24,000 nucleotides of DNA from an uncultured Erysipelotrichaceae bacterium. Lineage in GTDB: Bacteria; Bacillota_I; Bacilli_A; RF39; UBA660. Made by a program: the position numbers and the translations under genes. Of this stretch, positions 464 through 10,472 are shown piece after piece. The stretch lies in NCBI GenBank assembly GCA_948444795.1, contig CAOJUX010000001.1, positions 57,828 through 81,827 on the forward strand, in the 5' to 3' direction. Position 1 is the first letter of the stretch, and every line of letters begins with the position of its first letter. The notes under the pieces were generated by a model. It did not search any database and was not told the origin of the DNA. It was given only the letters and a program-made list of their open reading frames with translations.

Positions 464-1756
464 TTAATCTTTTATTAATCTATTAAGTTCAACAGCATAT
501 TCCATTGGCAATTCTTTTTTAAAAACACTTATAAAACCCATTACGATTAGTTCTTTTGCTCTTTCTTCAGTTAAACCTAAATTTTCTAAATAAATTAATT
601 GTTCTTCGTCAATTTTTGAAATACTAGCTTCATGTGAAATTCTTCCACTTCTATTCTCAACTATATTAGTTGGATAGGTATCGCTTTTAGAAGTATCATC
701 TAAAAGAATAGTATCACATTTAATTTCTGCCATTGAATTTTCGGCATTTCTGCTTATTTTTGTAGTTCCTCTATAATTTGCAACTCCACCTTTTTCAGCA
801 ATTGATTTACTAACAATATTACTTTTAGTATTTTTGCCTATATGTATCATTTTAGCACCAGCATCTAAATTTTGACCATTTTTAGCATAAGCAACACTAA
901 TAGAATTTCCTTTTGCATAATCGCCTTTTAATATACAAGAAGGATATTTCATAGTAACTTTACTACCTATATTACCATCTATCCATTCCATTGTTCCATA
1001 ATTATCTACAATTGCTCTTTTTGTTACTAAATTATAAACATCAGTACTCCAATTTTGAATAGTCGAATATCTCATACTAGCATTTTTTCCCACAAATATC
1101 TCTACAACTCCAGCATGAAGTGAATTTTGGGAATAACTTTTAGCTGTGCATCCTTCTATATACTCTAAAGAAGAGTTATCATCTACTATAATAATTGTTC
1201 TTTCAAATTGTCCTAAGCTCTCAGTCTCAATCCGAAAATAGCTTTGAAGAGGCCTGTCTAACTTTGTATTTTTAGGAATATAAATGAATGTTCCCCCACT
1301 CCAAACTGCTCCATTTAAAGCTGTGTATTTATTTTCATAAAATTTAACTAGGCTATTAAAATACTTTTTAAATAAATCAGGGTATTTTCTTAAAGCTTCA
1401 TCTGTTGATAAAAAAATAATATCTTTATTAGTCTTTTTTTTATGATAAATTACTTCGCTTTCAAATTGATTAGAAACACCATCTAAATATTTTTGCTCTG
1501 CATTAATAACTCCAAGATCATTAAAAGATTTTTTTACCTCTTTATCTACTTCATTCCAATCATTTTTATTTTTTTCATAATTATTTTTATAATATAAAAT
1601 ATCCTCAAAGGAAAAATTTAAGTCTGGTCCAAATTTAGGATTTTCTAATTCTAAAAATTTTTCATATGATTTTAATCTAAAATCTAACATCCAACTAGGT
1701 TCTTTTTTATTTTTTGATAAATTAATTATAAAATCTTTTGTTAATTTTTCTTTCAT
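464..1756 (-). CDS. sufB: Fe-S cluster assembly protein SufB/SufD family
   Basis: The 430-aa ORF shows the SufB beta-helix core by eye (GAVWSGGTFIYIPKN, FERTIIIVDDNSSLEYIEGCTA, AGAKMIHIG, SHEASISKIDEEQLIYL...G). An RBS-like sequence lies upstream. Confidence 0.85.
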   Translation of the reverse strand: MKEKLTKDFIINLSKNKKEPSWMLDFRLKSYEKFLELENPKFGPDLNFSFEDILYYKNNYEKNKNDWNEVDKEVKKSFNDLGVINAEQKYLDGVSNQFESEVIYHKKKTNKDIIFLSTDEALRKYPDLFKKYFNSLVKFYENKYTALNGAVWSGGTFIYIPKNTKLDRPLQSYFRIETESLGQFERTIIIVDDNSSLEYIEGCTAKSYSQNSLHAGVVEIFVGKNASMRYSTIQNWSTDVYNLVTKRAIVDNYGTMEWIDGNIGSKVTMKYPSCILKGDYAKGNSISVAYAKNGQNLDAGAKMIHIGKNTKSNIVSKSIAEKGGVANYRGTTKISRNAENSMAEIKCDTILLDDTSKSDTYPTNIVENRSGRISHEASISKIDEEQLIYLENLGLTEERAKELIVMGFISVFKKELPMEYAVELNRLIKD

Positions 1757-1803
1757 AAGACACCACTATTTGTGATTATACTACTTTTTTTTCCACTTAA
1801 CAA

Positions 1804-1832
1804 TTGAAAAATATCTATTAATTTGATATACT
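1804..1832 (+). promoter_or_regulatory. sigma-A type promoter for the 1859-2549 gene pair
   Basis: The -35 TTGAAA is at 1804-1809 and the spacer is 17 nt. The extended -10 TGATATACT has its hexamer at 1827-1832. The RBS AAGGAGG at about 1845 follows. Confidence 0.6.
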
Positions 1833-1858
1833 TTAATAAATAATAAGGAGGATTATAT

Positions 1859-2164
1859 ATGAGCGGCTATAATAATCAAAAAATTAATGCTGCTTATATA
1901 AATGCTTGGCAGCAAAATAATCCTAAATTATTAGAATTAAAAACAGACGGTGAAACTTTAAAATTTAATAATGAAACAATTAATATAAGTAATGTATATA
2001 TGCAAGATTTACTTATAAATCCTAATTTATTTTACAATATAGCATCAATAAGTAGTAAAGTATTATTTGAGATTATAAAAACTCATACTATTGCTTTAAA
2101 AATTAAAGAATTGACAATGCTAGAAAAAGTAAGGAGCTGGAATAAATATGAGCAAAATAAATGA
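1859..2164 (+). CDS. hypothetical protein (101 aa)
   Basis: ORF with a strong RBS (AAGGAGG) and an upstream promoter. I recognise no family. Confidence 0.5.
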   Translation: MSGYNNQKINAAYINAWQQNNPKLLELKTDGETLKFNNETINISNVYMQDLLINPNLFYNIASISSKVLFEIIKTHTIALKIKELTMLEKVRSWNKYEQNK

Positions 2165-2549
2165 TTATTATTGTACAGTAGATGAATATTTTGAATTATC
2201 GAAAAAAATGAAAGAAAATTTAACTCCAATTGAAGAAATTAAAATAATTAATTTTGAAAATTTTATTACCTTAGCTGAACAAAATGAAGATTTTGTGTCT
2301 AATGAAGTTTTGAATATTCTTAATGAATATCGTCAAAAAAGAGCTTTATTAATAAGCCCAGAAAATGAAAAAAATGATAATAAAATTATTCAATTTAAAA
2401 GTTTTCCAAAAACTCCTACTGATAAAGTTGAAGAAAAAGTTTATACCAGAAAATTAAGTAAAACTGGTTATATAAACGCTTCTATTATGTTAATTGTTAT
2501 TTTAAATATAGGATTTATAGTTGCACTAACTATGATATTTATGAGATAA
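2148..2549 (+). CDS. hypothetical tail-anchored membrane protein (133 aa)
   Basis: Its start overlaps the upstream ORF and has an AGGAG RBS. It has a single C-terminal hydrophobic helix (YINASIMLIVILNIGFIVALTMIF). I recognise no family. Confidence 0.5.
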   Translation: MSKINDYYCTVDEYFELSKKMKENLTPIEEIKIINFENFITLAEQNEDFVSNEVLNILNEYRQKRALLISPENEKNDNKIIQFKSFPKTPTDKVEEKVYTRKLSKTGYINASIMLIVILNIGFIVALTMIFMR

Positions 2550-2574
2550 AAAAATCAATATATACAATATGTAC

Positions 2575-2603
2575 CTCATTTTACAAAAAAAAATGAGTTT
2601 TTT
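2575..2603 (+). terminator. intrinsic terminator after 2148-2549
   Basis: The stem CTCATTTT/AAAATGAG (2575-2597) is followed by TTTTTT (2598-2603). The stem is AT-rich. Confidence 0.55.
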
Positions 2604-2663
2604 AATAATAATGTATTTTTTTGATTATATTTTTATTTTTAAAAGTAACAAATTTTAATTATG

Positions 2664-3608
2664 CTAATGTTTACTCTTTCTATAGACTAATATTGAATCA
2701 CTTATTGTACTATCATTAAATTTTATCCCATCAACGCCTAAAAATGAAATCAGTTGTGGATTATATTCTCGTAATATTTCAAAAACTTTTTCTAAATTAT
2801 ATATTGGGTTCCAATCTTGCTGATATGGAGTATTTCTAACAGTTTTATATAAATAACTAATTAAAATTACCCCATTATCATTTAAATTTTTTGACATATT
2901 ATCTATCATTATTTTTAAAAAATGTCTTGAAATATATGTTCCAATATTTGATAACCATATTGAATCAAATTGCCTAGGTATTTTTGTTTTAAATACATCG
3001 CCAGTAATAAATTCTAATTTTGTTTTTTTTATTTTTGATTTTACTTCATCATATAATATATCATTTTGCAAATAAGGATTACATCCTATTATCACATCTA
3101 CTTTATCTTCATCAAAATAAAATAATTCTTTTCGTATATTTAATCCTTTAATGTTCGAAAATAATTCATCCCAAATTAAATAAGACTCATAATCTAATAA
3201 TCTTAAAGTCAATTTAATTCTTTTATAAATATCATTATTAAAAGCTGATTTATTATCTCTAAACGTCTTATATTTATAGCTTAAAAAATTTAAAAATTCA
3301 CTTCTGCTCAATTCTAGCAAGCAACTTATTTTTAAATAAATATAAAATTTTGCATATGGACAAATATCCAAACAAACTATATCTCTACAATCAAATAAGC
3401 TCCCATTTATAATCTGATCACCAGATGATCCAACAGTTAATAATGTTCTATCAGATAAATTAAAATTGTTTATATAACCCGCAATATTTTCTGTCGTAAA
3501 AGGGTATAACAATTGAAAATTTTTGGCGATATCTTCTACAAACATTCCATTGCATTTATTAATCGCGTTCATCACAAGTGTTTCAAAATTCAAATTTTTT
3601 TCATACAT
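2664..3608 (-). CDS. DUF3419/BtaA-like SAM-dependent transferase-fold protein
   Basis: The 314-aa ORF has LLTVGSSGDQIING...VCLDICPYAKFYIYLK, which resembles the SAM-binding and adjacent helices of the DUF3419 (BtaA-like) family. The later FDSIWLSNIG...L..NGVILISY also fits. The call is by eye only. Confidence 0.5.
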   Translation of the reverse strand: MYEKNLNFETLVMNAINKCNGMFVEDIAKNFQLLYPFTTENIAGYINNFNLSDRTLLTVGSSGDQIINGSLFDCRDIVCLDICPYAKFYIYLKISCLLELSRSEFLNFLSYKYKTFRDNKSAFNNDIYKRIKLTLRLLDYESYLIWDELFSNIKGLNIRKELFYFDEDKVDVIIGCNPYLQNDILYDEVKSKIKKTKLEFITGDVFKTKIPRQFDSIWLSNIGTYISRHFLKIMIDNMSKNLNDNGVILISYLYKTVRNTPYQQDWNPIYNLEKVFEILREYNPQLISFLGVDGIKFNDSTISDSILVYRKSKH

Positions 3609-6730: not shown

Positions 6731-7562
6731 AAGTTATTTTAATAAACTTAAAGAAAGATTAGAAAATACTGATTGGGAACAATTGGCAAAAGATCGATAT
6801 CAAGAAGAAATAAATAATCCTAATAATTATTCATTTTGGTATCCTAAGGTAAAAGATTGTGGTATAAAAATGGTTAATTCAAGAATTTACAAGTTTTCAT
6901 ACGAAGCTTGGAATAAATTTAGGGAAATAGATGGCAATAAGCAGGCTTGGATTGATTATGTTAATTATATACAATCGTTAATAGAAAAAGATAAAACTTT
7001 AGAACATAAAAAAATATACAATATAAAAAATGGTTGTTTCAGTAACAAATTTAATGCAGTAGATTGTAATGTTAAATATAAAGATATTGCTAAAAAGTTT
7101 GTAGATATTCAATACACAAGTTACCTTTATGGGGCAGGTGGAACTACTGAATTAATTATACGTGATTATATAGATTACGATTATACTAAAACACCAACTA
7201 TTTATAATGGATTGCCATTAAGAACCGAATTTAGAGTATTTGTAGATTTTGATAGCGAAAAAGTTTTATATATAGTTAATTATTGGGATTACAATTATTG
7301 TTATCCTAGTATATATAATGCCACTGATAAAATTGTATTTAAACATATGAGAAACAAAATTCAAAAGGATTATGAAAAATATAAAGACTATGTAGTAAAC
7401 CAAGTTAAAGAAAAATTATTAAATTACAACAAAAGCAATAACAATGGACTTACAGGAAAATGGTCAATTGATATTATGAAAGAAAAAAATGACTTTTATT
7501 TAATAGATATGGCTATAGCTTATCAATCTGCTTATTGGGATTCTAGCAAAATTAAAAAATGA
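6714..7562 (+). CDS. ATP-grasp fold protein, CDC123/R2K-clade-like
   Basis: The RBS is GAAGGAA. The string of motifs resembles the R2K ATP-grasp clade. The motifs are IKNGCFSNKF (like SPKD), ELIIRDYIDY, LPLRTEFRVFVDFDSEKVLYIVNYWD (like EFRcFV...is.Rd) and WSIDIMKEKNDFYLIDMAIAYQSAYW (like DvY....v.LiDfNPf). The call is by eye only. Confidence 0.5.
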   Translation: MNKENKSYFNKLKERLENTDWEQLAKDRYQEEINNPNNYSFWYPKVKDCGIKMVNSRIYKFSYEAWNKFREIDGNKQAWIDYVNYIQSLIEKDKTLEHKKIYNIKNGCFSNKFNAVDCNVKYKDIAKKFVDIQYTSYLYGAGGTTELIIRDYIDYDYTKTPTIYNGLPLRTEFRVFVDFDSEKVLYIVNYWDYNYCYPSIYNATDKIVFKHMRNKIQKDYEKYKDYVVNQVKEKLLNYNKSNNNGLTGKWSIDIMKEKNDFYLIDMAIAYQSAYWDSSKIKK

Positions 7563-7614
7563 TATGTTTTGTCGATTTTAACATATTTCTTTCATTTTTG
7601 AATATAATAAAAAA

Positions 7615-7644
7615 GATCCTTGGTTACCCGTGTGGGCCAAGGAC
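7615..7644. repeat. IR-L, the left copy of a 30-bp GC-rich hairpin element, also a likely bidirectional terminator
   Basis: The sequence is GATCCTTGGTTACCCGTGTGGGCCAAGGAC. It matches the reverse complement of 8616-8645 at 27/30 positions, with a perfect 20-bp core at 7620-7639. It folds locally as CCTTGG-(TTA)-CCC-GTGT-GGG-CCAAGG, with T-rich runs on both sides. It ends 3 nt from the Abi stop codon. Confidence 0.85.
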
Positions 7645-7647
7645 ATT

Positions 7648-8592
7648 TTATTTTATGCTAATCCAATTAATAGGCAATCCCATACATTCTTTAACGCAAG
7701 AAATATCTATTGTTTTTAATTTCTGAGATAAACTTCTTAATCTTCCTTCTATTTTATTACAAACGTTATTAAAATCTTCTTGAGGCAGTAATATTTTAAA
7801 ACAAATAATTAGCGAAAATATATCATTTTTGCCTTGAATATATCTTGAATTTAAAATTGAAATATTAAGTTGTTTATGATATATGGTATCTGGAATAGCC
7901 TGATTGTTTTTTGCATTGAATAATCTTTCGTCATGAGCGCATAGATTACGATAAAAAGCCATATTTTTAATATATTGATCTAAATCATAATCTTGTATAT
8001 CCCAATGTTTTGCAACTTCTTGTCTAATTTTTTGTTTCATTAGAGAATAAAATTGACTTAAGCGCCCAAGAGTTAAGCAATTAACTAATACCCACATGGG
8101 AACAAATCCATAATTTAAAATATAATGATTTACATAATCTTTTTTAGAAATATTGTAAGAGATATCACTTTGTAGATTGCTTAATAATAATTGAATTTTT
8201 TCTATTCTTTCTTCGTATTTTTGTAGAGTACATCCACTACCCTTTAAAGTTTCAAAATTATCTAATTTCAAATAATTATCATTTCCATACTTTTCAGAAA
8301 AATTGTAAGCAATTAGTGACCTCAAAATGTTTTCTACTTTTAATATAGGTTTAAAGAATATATTTTTCAAAATTCTATCAAAATCATACAAAGCATATAT
8401 TTCTTCGAATGTTGTTCCTTCTAGAAAAACATCTTTACTGTTTGGCTTCATAAATAAATCTTTATAACCATTAATAATATTATAATAATTTTCTTCTGCT
8501 AACTTTTCTTTGGCAAATTTTTCATCAGATATTATTAAACCTCTATTTCTTAAAATTGCAATTTGTTCATCATATGTTTTAAATTCTTTCAT
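7648..8592 (-). CDS. Abi_2 family abortive-infection protein (AbiD/AbiF-like)
   Basis: The start is taken at 8592 (RBS AAAGGAG, product MKEFKTYDEQIAILRNRGLIISDE...EENYYNIINGY). RNLCAHDERLFN matches the conserved RN..aH..r.wn motif of Abi_2. The 16-codon upstream extension in the ORF track runs through the IR and is rejected. Confidence 0.85.
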   Translation of the reverse strand: MKEFKTYDEQIAILRNRGLIISDEKFAKEKLAEENYYNIINGYKDLFMKPNSKDVFLEGTTFEEIYALYDFDRILKNIFFKPILKVENILRSLIAYNFSEKYGNDNYLKLDNFETLKGSGCTLQKYEERIEKIQLLLSNLQSDISYNISKKDYVNHYILNYGFVPMWVLVNCLTLGRLSQFYSLMKQKIRQEVAKHWDIQDYDLDQYIKNMAFYRNLCAHDERLFNAKNNQAIPDTIYHKQLNISILNSRYIQGKNDIFSLIICFKILLPQEDFNNVCNKIEGRLRSLSQKLKTIDISCVKECMGLPINWISIK

Positions 8593-8615
8593 AAACAGCT
8601 CCTTTAATAAAAAAA

Positions 8616-8645
8616 GTCTCTGGCCCACACGGGTAACCAAAGATC
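8616..8645. repeat. IR-R, the right (inverted) copy of the 30-bp GC-rich hairpin element, in the Abi 5' leader
   Basis: The sequence is GTCTCTGGCCCACACGGGTAACCAAAGATC, with a perfect core at 8621-8640. In the minus-strand RNA it forms the same hairpin, followed by U7 (complement of 8609-8615) and then immediately by the Abi RBS. Confidence 0.85.
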
Positions 8646-8657
8646 AATCACAATTAA

Positions 8658-8685
8658 ATTATATCAATAAATAGAAAAAATGCAA
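8658..8685 (-). promoter_or_regulatory. sigma-A type promoter upstream of IR-R and the Abi gene
   Basis: On the minus strand the -35 TTGCAT is at 8685-8680 and the spacer is 16 nt. The extended -10 TGATATAAT has its hexamer at 8663-8658. The predicted transcription start at about 8650 lies just 5' of the IR-R hairpin. Confidence 0.5.
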
Positions 8686-8795
8686 CAAAAAATTGTGTTT
8701 TTTTACTCTTTTTTTATTTATTTTATAACTTTTAACATATTTTAAACCATTTTATACGTTTTTAAGACATTTCGAATTTTATATAATAATAACAT

Positions 8796-8930
8796 TTACT
8801 TTTTTATATTATTTAACGATCTGTAATGTCTACGCATACTTTTTAAAACTCTAAGTTTAGCACATCCTGGATATACTCTACTATAATATTTTATTTCTCT
8901 TTCTAAAATTTTTAATTTTCTTTCTATCAA
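8796..8930 (-). CDS. possible 44-codon basic small ORF (TTG start)
   Basis: Not in the ORF track. The product is LIERKLKILEREIKYYSRVYPGCAKLRVLKSMRRHYRSLNNIKK. It is preceded by AGGGTGA and a plausible promoter (TCGACA, 16 nt, TATGAT, roughly 8945-8975 on the minus strand). There is no family match, and it could be noise in AT-rich DNA. Confidence 0.25.
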   Translation of the reverse strand: MIERKLKILEREIKYYSRVYPGCAKLRVLKSMRRHYRSLNNIKK

Positions 8931-9001
8931 CCTAATCACCCTAATATAAAATATATCATATTTTTAGTGCTAAACTTGTCGAAATATGTAATTTATTGCA
9001 T

Positions 9002-9040
9002 TAAAAAAAGAGGTAGCCTCTAAATTAGAAGTTACCTCTA
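9002..9040 (-). terminator. intrinsic terminator after the 9042-9425 ORF
   Basis: On the minus strand AGAGG-CTA-CCTCT (9021-9009) is followed by TTTTTT. An alternative is the 7-bp stem AGAGGTA/TACCTCT (9039-9033 with 9015-9009). The hairpin starts right after the stop codon. Confidence 0.55.
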
Positions 9041-9041
9041 T

Positions 9042-9425
9042 TTATTCAATATTATAATGTATAGCTTCGTCTTTTTTCTTTCTGTTAGAAATTTTTATTG
9101 GTTTAACTGGATACCAACTTTTAACTTTTAAAACCTTACCTGAATTTATTCTTATAGCAACACATATATCATCATTTATTTTTTTATAATATTCTAAACC
9201 TTTTGTTGTTTTATTATAAAAAACATAATCAGGTCTTTTAATTATATTATTAAGCTCATCATAAATCTTGTCAATTTCTTCTTTTGTGCCAAAATCTTGC
9301 AAATGTGAGTCTATAACATGTTGCTTTCTATCATCGTAAACTAATATTGGTTTATTTTTATGTTCACTTATATCCCAATATTCTGCTATATCTTCTTCTA
9401 AAATTCCAACATATTTATAACTCAT
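9042..9425 (-). CDS. small putative nuclease/toxin, PBECR-like (phage Barnase-EndoU-ColicinE5/D-RelE-like), tentative
   Basis: The 127-aa ORF has the RBS GGAAGGA. The layout ILVYDDRKQHVIDSHLQDF...IYDELNNIIKRPDYVFYNK...ICVAIRIN...KVKSWYPV resembles free-standing PBECR-type proteins (..tdeR..Hi...H......yi..ii..PDyi..d......v.vkl......s.y.i). The call is from memory of the family pattern only. Confidence 0.4.
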   Translation of the reverse strand: MSYKYVGILEEDIAEYWDISEHKNKPILVYDDRKQHVIDSHLQDFGTKEEIDKIYDELNNIIKRPDYVFYNKTTKGLEYYKKINDDICVAIRINSGKVLKVKSWYPVKPIKISNRKKKDEAIHYNIE

Positions 9426-9440
9426 AGCTTAATCCTTCCA

Positions 9441-9474
9441 ATTAAAATAAACAAACCCGTCATTTCTGACGGGC
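9441..9474 (-). terminator. intrinsic terminator located inside the leader of the 9042-9425 ORF
   Basis: On the minus strand the stem CCCGTCA, a GAAA loop and TGACGGG (9473-9456) are followed by TTTGTTTATTTT. The U tract ends about 2 nt before the RBS of the downstream ORF. Confidence 0.75.
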
Positions 9475-9661
9475 TATTAAGCAATAAGACCGGGCATCAC
9501 TTCCGGTATCTCATCAGAAACCCTCGCGAGTAACCTACACTTAAGACTTACGTCCGCGATAGACGATGACATTCTATCCTCAAAATTGCTTACTCAAACA
9601 ATAACACATGTATTACACATATATTGTCGTTTTTTATTAGATATTCGAAATTTCTTTCGAC
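9475..9661 (-). ncRNA. candidate structured leader or small RNA of unknown class (GC-rich block 9481-9570)
   Basis: By hand count the block 9481-9570 has 45 G/C out of 90, against 21/90 in the adjacent 9601-9690. No ORF is present. Hairpin A in plus coordinates is CGCG(9525-9528)/CGCG(9555-9558) plus GTAA(9530-9533)/TTAC(9548-9551). Hairpin B is ACCGG(9489-9493)/CCGGT(9503-9507). The block lies between a predicted promoter and the terminator. Confidence 0.5.
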
Positions 9662-9667
9662 AAATTA

Positions 9668-9696
9668 CTTATACCACATTTTATTGTGAAATTCAA
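9668..9696 (-). promoter_or_regulatory. sigma-A type promoter for the structured leader plus the 9042-9425 ORF
   Basis: On the minus strand the -35 TTGAAT is at 9696-9691 and the spacer is 17 nt. The extended -10 TGGTATAAG has its hexamer at 9673-9668. Confidence 0.5.
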
Positions 9697-9767
9697 TATT
9701 TTTTATGCTTTTTTTATATCATTTGATATATATTAAGGTATTTTATGATATTTTACATATATTAAGT

Positions 9768-10472
9768 TTATTTATACCAGCTTTTTTTGTAAGGGAAATA
9801 TCTAAGTTGATTGTTTACATATCCCTTTAACCAAGTATATTCATTTGCAGTTCCGACGTTCATAGAAACGTTTTTTATAATTGTACCAGTTTTATAAAGA
9901 ACTTTAGATTTATTAAAACCTATGCCTCCAATTCTTGCATAAACGCTTGTTGTTAGTGTTAAATTTTTTGATAAAGTATTTGTATTAGTTGTAGTCTTTT
10001 TGATACCAAAATAAGTATAATATGAGCTACAACATGATTTAGACATTGATTTACTCTCATCGCCAAACCATTTACGTGGTTTAACATCTATATGAGTATA
10101 ATTACTACTACCTCCACATTTATATCCGATACCACATTTATGTCCTAGATCTTCTAAAGCAAGTGCTACTTGTTTACTTGGTATTATTTTACCATTTTTA
10201 TCAGTGAATTTTATATCACAAGCATAACCTTGATGAGTATTACTAATAGTTTTTGATTTAGTAACCGTTCTTTCGTGTGTAGGGCAACGATATCCAGATG
10301 AAATATCTCCTCTTACTGCGCATATTTTTTTCATAACTTTTTCAAGTAGTGGTGGTAATGTATCTGCTATCACTATTTTATGATTTTTACCACATTTGCA
10401 CTTCCATTCATAAACGCAAAAATGTTCTGATAAACGACTTCTATCATTGTATTTGTACTCTATTAATTTCAT
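9768..10472 (-). CDS. endolysin with an N-terminal Peptidase_M15 (zinc D-Ala-D-Ala carboxypeptidase-like) domain and a C-terminal SH3-like wall-binding region
   Basis: LSEHFCVYEWKCKCG...SSGYRCPTHERTV...HQGYACDI...THIDV fits the M15 H-x-D...H zinc site. It is the last gene of the late operon, directly after a holin. Confidence 0.75.
   Translation of the reverse strand: MKLIEYKYNDRSRLSEHFCVYEWKCKCGKNHKIVIADTLPPLLEKVMKKICAVRGDISSGYRCPTHERTVTKSKTISNTHQGYACDIKFTDKNGKIIPSKQVALALEDLGHKCGIGYKCGGSSNYTHIDVKPRKWFGDESKSMSKSCCSSYYTYFGIKKTTTNTNTLSKNLTLTTSVYARIGGIGFNKSKVLYKTGTIIKNVSMNVGTANEYTWLKGYVNNQLRYFPYKKSWYK

Follow-up and report, generated by a model that had tools for sequence, protein, structure and literature searches.

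Skipping-rope RNAs (Rfam RF02924) and their association with a nearby protein gene were published in 2017 (Weinberg et al. 2017, PMC5737381). On account of its features, the family was then singled out, with only few other bacterial RNA motifs, as complex enough for a 'sophisticated biochemical function'; the authors had no functional hypothesis (PMC5737381). In the literature searched we found no functional work on skipping-rope after 2017. Here we describe a skipping-rope RNA that lies next to the gene of a small protein with a PBECR3 domain in DNA of an uncultured Erysipelotrichaceae bacterium (assembly GCA_948444795.1, contig CAOJUX010000001.1, positions 57,828 to 81,827). This whole stretch of 24,000 nucleotides is referred to as the window, and all coordinates count from its first letter; RNA and gene are encoded on the minus strand. 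An earlier interpretation made from the letters of the DNA, called the sequence-only reading below, had placed here a structured RNA of unknown class that would form a riboswitch-like leader of a small toxin-like gene.

PBECR domains are predicted to be ribonucleases (RNases; Iyer et al. 2017, PMC5512222), namely metal-independent RNases of the BECR fold (PMC5512222; 2026 preprint 10.64898/2026.08.28.747851). They occur in phage polyvalent proteins and MuF proteins, with solo versions in phages, and were proposed to be injected effectors that attack host or CRISPR RNAs; no RNA partner was described (PMC5512222). The protein of the window shares with them the Pfam PBECR3 domain and the conserved histidine of the N-terminal helix. 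Unlike the PBECR domains of polyvalent proteins, it is the product of a small solo gene that forms a cassette with an RNA.

In layout, this cassette is like type III toxin-antitoxin loci (ToxIN, AbiQ/antiQ, CptIN and TenpIN), with a promoter, a non-coding RNA (ncRNA), an intrinsic terminator and the gene of a predicted endoribonuclease (endoRNase), and with no protein antitoxin. In both cases the elements are borne by phages or plasmids, and phages can carry orphan copies of the RNA. Type III RNAs, however, consist of two to five tandem repeats of 34-50 nt, whereas the RNA described here is a single structured unit of about 110 nt; the protein has a BECR/RelE-like rather than a ToxN/AbiQ fold, and its inhibition by the RNA is something we only infer. 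A second close system is RCd22/AbiF (Abi_2, HEPN; abiF motif RF03085) of the phi027 prophage in C. difficile. It comprises a SigA-type promoter, a structured ncRNA of about 100-130 nt with a terminator, and a toxin mRNA made by read-through only (PMC12373285). [quoted passage not shown] Like our cassette, it is a moron in a prophage lysis module with no promoter before the ribosome-binding site (RBS) of the toxin gene (PMC12373285). The two differ in RNA family and in protein superfamily, and the abiF motif had no match at E <= 10 within 7500-9900 of the window.

We assigned the RNA of the window by its similarity to Rfam models. At the gathering threshold a scan of the window gave no match. 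In a permissive scan, 9481-9589 (-) aligned to the whole RF02924 model (positions 1-80) with 33.8 bits and an E-value of 6e-6, which is below the gathering cut-off of 36.7 bits, and none of the riboswitch families matched at E <= 10. The close relatives of this RNA (L094, L118, L119, L046, L090, L123, L051 and L096) and those found later via the protein have the same architecture and score 30.5-53 bits with the Rfam model, and five clade-mates exceed the cut-off (L096, L151, L123, L150 and L140). Since the clade straddles the cut-off in this way, the similarity identifies the RNA of the window as a skipping-rope RNA and not as a different family. Its low score is due to an inserted hairpin and low G+C, and since RNAs of the window type fall just under the cut-off, they are routinely missed in annotation. 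That is, the 'unknown class' of the sequence-only reading turned out to be a known family, and the claim of novelty is withdrawn with it. We thus do not uphold a new riboswitch class, but the locus still offers a lead on an orphan RNA class that can be put to the test.

To collect relatives, a DNA pattern derived from the invariant nucleotides was scanned over viral and genome collections. Nine viral pattern matches exceeded the Rfam cut-off (48-77 bits), and a structural filter left 55 loci, which together with the window make 56 RNA loci. Skipping-rope RNAs have about 20 invariant nucleotides. In the alignment of 53 sequences these include GAGG, GAA, GAGAU and GGAA..G..CC, all of them present in the window; the conserved junction and loop set that we tested, which includes CGC, is likewise invariant there and present in the window. 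With the published family the RNA shares the multi-stem junction P1/H1/H2/H3, the invariant nucleotides, a 3' terminator, one nearby protein gene and the phage or prophage setting. What sets it apart from the published motif is low G+C, a longer loop of H1 and an additional hairpin with a GNRA cap (H2b), which is inserted between H2 and the GAGAU junction; in its clade a 5' leader of about 70 nt precedes the RNA, and the gene order is inverted, with the RNA upstream and the terminator in between. The string CUGAUGAG had suggested a hammerhead ribozyme; no ribozyme family matched at E <= 10, and the string is part of the conserved GAUGAGAU junction. Weinberg et al. (PMC5737381) likewise report no self-cleavage. 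A blastn search of the region against phages gave no match.

We then built a covariance model (R1) from 53 sequences and assessed covariation on a model alignment of 58 sequences that included the window. R1 has a single match in the window, at 46.8 bits. The core at 9592-9478 is a four-hairpin variant of skipping-rope. The closing helix P1 pairs 9592-9585 with 9485-9478, plus G9581 with C9488. Within it lie H1 (hairpin 9578-9558, pairing 9578-9574 with 9562-9558), H2 (9555-9552 with 9547-9544, GGAC-GUAA-GUCU, with a GUAA loop), H2b (9534-9528 with 9523-9517, GCGA loop), the junction UGAUGAGAU at 9516-9508, and H3 (9507-9503 with 9493-9489). P1, H1 and H3 are paired in 92.5% of the alignment cells versus 67% in shuffles, with changes on both sides in 14 of the 19 pairs. 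The covariation score is 0.689 versus 0.213, a value reached by none of 500 shuffles, and sliding the register abolishes the signal. In an alignment of the nine-sequence subtype, H2 (GGAC-GNRA-GUCU) and H3 are 100% paired with compensatory changes and H2b is 76% paired; in other members of the clade H2 is lengthened yet still paired. Folding 9478-9592 as a single sequence recovers P1, H1, H2 and H3, but the RNA core is not unusually stable (z -0.69). The structure is thus supported by covariation and not by folding energy.

These results bear out the structured RNA that had been proposed from the bare sequence, since covariation across the 58 sequences supports the fold, and they redraw part of it. 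The proposed hairpin ACCGG[9]CCGGU at 9507-9489 is helix H3 of the family, which is 99-100% paired and covaries. The hairpin CGCG-GAC-GUAA[14]UUAC-U-CGCG at 9558-9525 can be drawn, but it is paired in 69.8% of cells versus 69.0% in shuffles and shows no covariation; in its place the conserved fold has the two short hairpins H2 (9555-9544) and H2b (9534-9517). P1 and H1 had been overlooked. We also considered a kissing helix between the loops of H1 and H3 (UGUCA with UGAUG in the window) and rejected it, at 51% paired family-wide versus 50% in shuffles with one suggestive column pair (23/113). A 31-amino-acid open reading frame (ORF) inside the RNA (9477-9572) is not coding: the ATG falls within the loop of H1, and L090, L153, L147 and L140 lack it.

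The RNA is tied to the PBECR3 gene whichever of the two the search starts from. Starting from the RNA, PBECR3-like ORFs were found in 33 of the 56 RNA loci versus none of 81 chance pattern matches (Fisher p 6e-17). The search that starts from the protein gives the stronger evidence. Seven distinct proteins of the window clade were located by exact sequence in 19 contigs, and all 19 carried the RNA, in each case 40-55 nt upstream of the ATG. Unrelated genes flank these loci (recA/hipA to rny, murT to spoVA, phage pRha to terminase, CHAP endolysin). A protein profile of the canonical clade yielded 30 viral loci. In 29 of them the RNA follows downstream of the gene after 30-80 nt, and the remaining locus is cut off by a contig edge. 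Among distant protein representatives, four were looked up and three have the RNA downstream (4/5 when counted by loci). Across 53 distinct PBECR proteins there is no further conserved neighbour; the commonest, a CI-like repressor, accompanies 11 of them. We therefore rejected a protein antitoxin, for which there is no conserved neighbour family. Since an Abi_2 gene lies 450 nt off in the window, the RNA might have been expected to track Abi_2/AbiF instead; an iterative hidden Markov model search found such a gene at none of the 55 other RNA loci. The linkage of RNA and PBECR3 gene is near-obligate in both search directions, and the data establish a two-part module of RNA and RNase gene.

The gene in the window (9425-9042) encodes a solo PBECR3 domain of 127 amino acids (Pfam 1.3e-14). 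Across 30 diverse homologues H36 and H41 are invariant (HxxxxH), and P65, D66, E78 and K81 are nearly so. The best fold matches of an AlphaFold2 model (predicted local distance difference test score, pLDDT, 94.3) are PDB entries of RelE-family, BrnT, HigB2, ParE and CdiA-CT toxins. They are weak yet coherent (E 0.015-0.2), and the top two, the RelE-family and BrnT RNase toxins, have probabilities of 0.97-0.98 (E 0.015-0.02). On this basis the protein is predicted to be a metal-independent endoRNase of the BECR fold and a putative toxin. It belongs to a small family, whose proteins of about 120-160 amino acids fall into 279 clusters at 50% identity. Searches with single proteins found no related loci; tblastn of the protein against phages, the exact-sequence look-up of P0001 and a profile search of PDB sequences gave no match, and a plasmid search with the protein and a phage search with a canonical-clade protein returned one weak match each. 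The latter, the sole match in curated phages, lies in Streptococcus phage Javan254 (MK448886.1, 38179-38538; 30.6% identity) and is annotated as 'spbA protein'. It lies 18 nt from the end of the record, so a following RNA would fall outside the deposited prophage.

The sequence-only reading had described an RNA that is structured, has a promoter to itself and is followed by a strong terminator right next to the RBS of a small RNase-like gene, and in these respects it was correct. The non-coding stretch on which it built is indeed present, comprising the 342 nt (9767-9426) between the endolysin stop at 9768 and the ATG of the 127-amino-acid ORF at 9425. G+C is 45/90 in 9481-9570, as had been counted, whereas the adjacent 90 nt have 23/90 and not 21/90; the average of the whole window is 26.8%. 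The putative promoter at 9696-9668 consists of the -35 element TTGAAT (9696-9691), a 17-nt spacer and the extended -10 element TGgTATAAG (9676-9668), from which a transcription start near 9661 is predicted. It was missed by a consensus scan on account of the final G of the hexamer. Promoter-like sites built alike (TTGAYW, 17 nt, TGnTAWAWT) stand at an equal upstream distance in about ten homologous cassettes, for instance some 70-75 nt upstream of P1 in L094, L144, L150, L153, L123, L140 and L147. The 5' leader of the transcript (9661-9593) contains two local hairpins in the minimum-free-energy fold, UCGAAA-GAAA-UUUCGA at 9660-9645 and ACAAUAUAUGUGU...ACAUGUGUUAUUGU at 9627-9598. Relatives show analogous hairpins, yet the leaders cannot be aligned and are lineage-specific, and RNAalifold found no conserved structure in them.

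Downstream of the RNA core the intrinsic terminator (9475-9444) has a stem of 9473-9467 with 9462-9456, a GAAA loop and a U tract at 9455-9444. The scan for terminators places a site at 9475-9454, one of three such sites in 2 kb versus 0.3 expected, and the hairpin (CCCGUCA-GAAA-UGACGGG) has -14.4 kcal/mol (z -4.3). A hairpin with a U run stands at this position in 14 of 14 window-type cassettes, with unrelated stem sequences. The RBS GGAAGGA follows at 9439-9433, 7 nt before the ATG, and homologous cassettes have GGAG-type sites at the same position. As the sequence-only reading had noted, there is no space for a promoter after the terminator in this window, so the PBECR3 gene can be expressed by read-through only. 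The end of the cassette, 20 nt past the stop codon of PBECR3, is marked by a terminator-like hairpin with a U run (AGAGGCUACCUCU, 9021-9003), which was also picked up by the terminator scan.

The order of promoter, leader of about 70 nt, RNA, terminator, RBS and gene is confined to the window clade. In most of the family the RNA follows the PBECR gene at 19-215 nt, predominantly at 19-58 nt: the gene precedes the RNA in 26 of the 33 loci that were found from the RNA and have the gene, at a median of 53 nt and with a terminator thereafter, and in all 29 canonical loci that were found from the protein and carry the RNA. A terminator also stands 3' of the RNA where no gene follows. Single loci deviate further. 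In L010 the RNA is convergent to the PBECR gene, and in L123 a promoter-like site (TTGACT-18-TACAAT) lies between terminator and gene. Two copies of the RNA occur in L107 (5198-5300 and 5421-5543, minus strand), L082 (5109-5190 and 6526-6606, minus strand) and L077 (710-812 and 822-903, minus strand); both copies follow a single PBECR gene in L107 and L082, and no PBECR ORF was found in L077.

Orphan RNAs were found as well. Five Syntrophomonadaceae genomes (L042, L047, L049, L052 and L129) carry one at a syntenic chromosomal site, with compensatory changes in P1 and no PBECR ORF in the flanks examined. Two unrelated phages hold one within a tRNA array, at tRNA-like spacing. In L008 the RNA (1363-1461, plus strand) begins 3 nt past tRNA-Gly in an array of 22 tRNAs, and in L013 (6085-6184, minus strand) it ends 4 nt before tRNA-Ser; the flanks examined contain no PBECR ORF in either case. 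These copies could be orphan decoys that are released by tRNA-processing enzymes. Among 71 true loci, nine have tRNA or transfer-messenger RNA (tmRNA) genes within 1 kb of the RNA (for example L144, L147, L150, L119, L039, L067 and L080), and in L144 the cassette (1599-3104) lies between tmRNA plus tRNA-Gln and tRNA-Thr. The density of tRNA genes is 0.081 per kb versus 0.008 in the 81 control loci; if L008 is left out, the excess is still about four-fold. This proximity may only reflect the integration sites of mobile elements.

From these observations we favour the interpretation that the RNA is the dedicated partner of the PBECR3 RNase, most likely a type III-like antitoxin that binds and neutralises it, and we put the probability of this at about one half. 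The possibility of an RNA partner or antitoxin for the downstream RNase had been the fallback of the sequence-only reading. The window (9000-9700, minus strand) would then hold a self-contained two-part cassette, a moron at the lysis end of a prophage. The promoter would give rise to a transcript of about 215 nt that contains the skipping-rope core and ends at the intrinsic terminator. Most transcripts would halt there, leaving the RNA in excess, and rare read-through would produce a toxin mRNA that retains the RNA in its 5' untranslated region (UTR); in this way the terminator would limit expression of the toxin. Loss or titration of the RNA, for instance by a phage-induced shut-off of transcription or by loss of the prophage, would free the RNase and thereby result in post-segregational killing or in abortive infection. 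Binding and inhibition, like toxicity and biological role, are extrapolated here from sequence and from analogy.

The antitoxin interpretation is favoured because the layout of the window clade copies that of ToxIN and of RCd22/AbiF (PMC12373285), because a probable RNase toxin comes without a protein antidote, and because orphan and duplicated RNAs exist, also in phages. Judged from sequence, the convergent RNA of L010 and the separate promoter-like site of the gene in L123 are evidence for action in trans. By analogy, duplicated and orphan RNAs would be population features of antitoxins, and the orphans in phage tRNA arrays recall the pseudo-ToxI that phages reportedly carry (Blower et al. 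2012). Several observations weigh against it. Most family members have the RNA downstream of the gene, apparently on one transcript, which is the opposite of known type III loci and applies also to the two-copy relatives L107 and L082; the type III-like terminator that would limit the toxin gene is a sequence feature of the window clade and not of the canonical clade, where the RNA comes after the gene. The RNA is one complex unit instead of tandem short repeats, with one copy and no tandem repeat of the unit in the window. Of the 56 RNA loci, 23 have no PBECR ORF in the available DNA, although for about eight of them the flanks were too short to decide. As for the PBECR3 protein, PADLOC has no model for it, and its fold matches RNase toxins weakly (E about 0.02).

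Where the gene precedes the RNA, an excess of RNA is not built in, and this order is at least as compatible with a 1:1 ribonucleoprotein. The RNA might accordingly be a cofactor, that is, a structural, specificity-giving or activating subunit of the PBECR3 RNase whose 3' end is defined by the terminator. We regard this as possible, though on the doubtful side. The omega RNAs and tracrRNAs are analogous RNA subunits of their nucleases. The predominant order, in which gene and RNA are 19-58 nt apart and a terminator comes last, suggests that both are transcribed together and at about the same dosage, and the linkage is near-obligate in both directions. The RNA is also large, and its roughly 20 invariant nucleotides seem more than the occlusion of an active site would need, in keeping with the 'sophisticated biochemical function' suggested for it (Weinberg et al. 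2017, PMC5737381). A subunit is less easily reconciled with orphan RNAs that are conserved in chromosomes and phage tRNA arrays without a gene, with duplicated RNAs after a single gene, or with the strong terminator between RNA and gene in the window clade, by which RNA would be over-produced relative to protein. The BECR RNases that have been characterised to date, moreover, need no RNA cofactor (PMC5512222).

Two further explanations confine the RNA to acting in cis. In the first it would be a riboswitch, an attenuator or a leader for antitermination, which responds to a ligand or factor and thereby controls whether transcription reads through into the PBECR3 gene. In the window the locus does look like a transcription-terminating riboswitch or attenuator: a structured 5' leader has its terminator directly before the RBS, an arrangement repeated in 13 related cassettes, and the gene is expressible by read-through only. 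A comparable sensing role of the leader has been speculated on for AbiF/RCd22 (PMC12373285). The family as a whole does not support this architecture. The RNA is downstream of the gene in the 26 of 33 and 29 of 29 loci given above, convergent in L010 and orphaned elsewhere, so its position is not conserved; its gene context is not ligand-related, a terminator follows it even where no gene does, and L123 has its promoter-like site after the terminator. The terminator stems vary freely between cassettes while the RNA core is constant, so there is no conserved or overlapping expression platform. Partition functions of 12 cassettes, which are equilibrium predictions and blurred in some cassettes by extra outer pairs in the reference fold, gave the terminator a probability of about 0.9 or more in most and let its 5' arm pair upstream with a probability of at most 0.01 in eight. 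In the window it forms independently of the core (probability 0.91), and no competing antiterminator pairing was predicted. Weinberg et al. 2017 had called motifs of this kind improbable riboswitches (PMC5737381). Given the position of the RNA, the variety of arrangements and the missing expression platform, we consider gating of this sort very improbable. Alternatively, the RNA could be an autoregulatory signal in the 5' or 3' UTR of the PBECR3 mRNA that is cleaved or stabilised by the RNase and has no role as a free RNA. It is always adjacent to the gene and nearly always on the same strand, and endoribonuclease toxins such as ToxN are known to process transcripts of their own loci. The convergent arrangement of L010 and the orphan copies, also those in tRNA arrays, are at odds with such a signal; promoter and terminator of the window clade would yield a free RNA of about 215 nt, and the elaborate conserved junction exceeds the needs of a cleavage signal. 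This makes pure autoregulation improbable as well.

In a more specific form of the antitoxin interpretation, the RNA would have the shape of a tRNA and, as a pseudo-substrate, neutralise a BECR RNase that targets tRNAs; the orphans in phage tRNA arrays would then be anti-defence decoys. Such a pair would make up an RNA-antitoxin system of a new kind. Around the junction, the topology runs P1 (7-8 bp), 2 nt, H1, 1 nt, H2, a variable linker or extra arm, H3, 0 nt and P1, and these connector lengths, like the total size of about 80 nt, are reminiscent of a cloverleaf. In two unrelated phages the RNA stands at tRNA spacing, and tRNA genes are found near it more often than in controls. BECR nucleases of the colicin D and E5 type cleave tRNAs in the anticodon loop. 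Both ARAGORN and a tRNA covariance model were negative for the RNA itself, the loop of H2 is a tetraloop, and the proximity may stem from integration bias of mobile elements. Weighing these points, we consider tRNA mimicry unlikely.

Some features around the cassette are recorded here as well. A 29-nt direct repeat (2.3 copies, 75% match) spans 9709-9776, between the endolysin stop and the -35 element of the RNA promoter; it could be an operator, a UP-like element or mere AT-rich repetition. The gene 450 nt beyond PBECR3 (7648-8592, minus strand) encodes AbiD/Abi_2 (Pfam 1.2e-43, PADLOC AbiD 6.7e-63). It has its own promoter-like TTGCAT-17-TATAAT, a short leader with a terminal hairpin UCUUUGG...CCAGAGA and U run (about 8641-8605) and, immediately after these, the RBS AAAGGAG and an ATG at 8592, and this layout of promoter, terminator and RBS (region 7648-8700) is the same as that of RCd22/AbiF in C. 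difficile. Between the PBECR3 terminator and the AbiD promoter lies an ORF for a very basic protein of 47 amino acids (8796-8939, minus strand) with a GTG start, preceded by TCGACA-16-TATGAT; it matched nothing in Pfam or PADLOC.

In the literature searched we found neither an RNA partner of a BECR toxin nor an RNA-antitoxin system with a BECR toxin and a non-repetitive antitoxin. New here, as far as this literature shows, is the identification of the partner as a solo PBECR3 protein, together with a linkage quantified both ways. New are also the four-hairpin variant of the RNA and the inverted layout that resembles a type III toxin-antitoxin locus. Skipping-rope, an RNA family set apart for its complexity, is thus tied almost one-to-one to a small solo PBECR3 RNase, and one clade is arranged exactly like a cassette of RNA antitoxin and toxin. 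Should the RNA act as a cofactor, the module would be a new small ribonucleoprotein nuclease. Should it inhibit the RNase, the pair would be an RNA-antitoxin system with a toxin of the BECR fold and a non-repetitive antitoxin, and together with the case of AbiF and its ncRNA it would suggest that orphan RNAs with a structure, when they lie near defence genes, often serve as partners that neutralise a protein.

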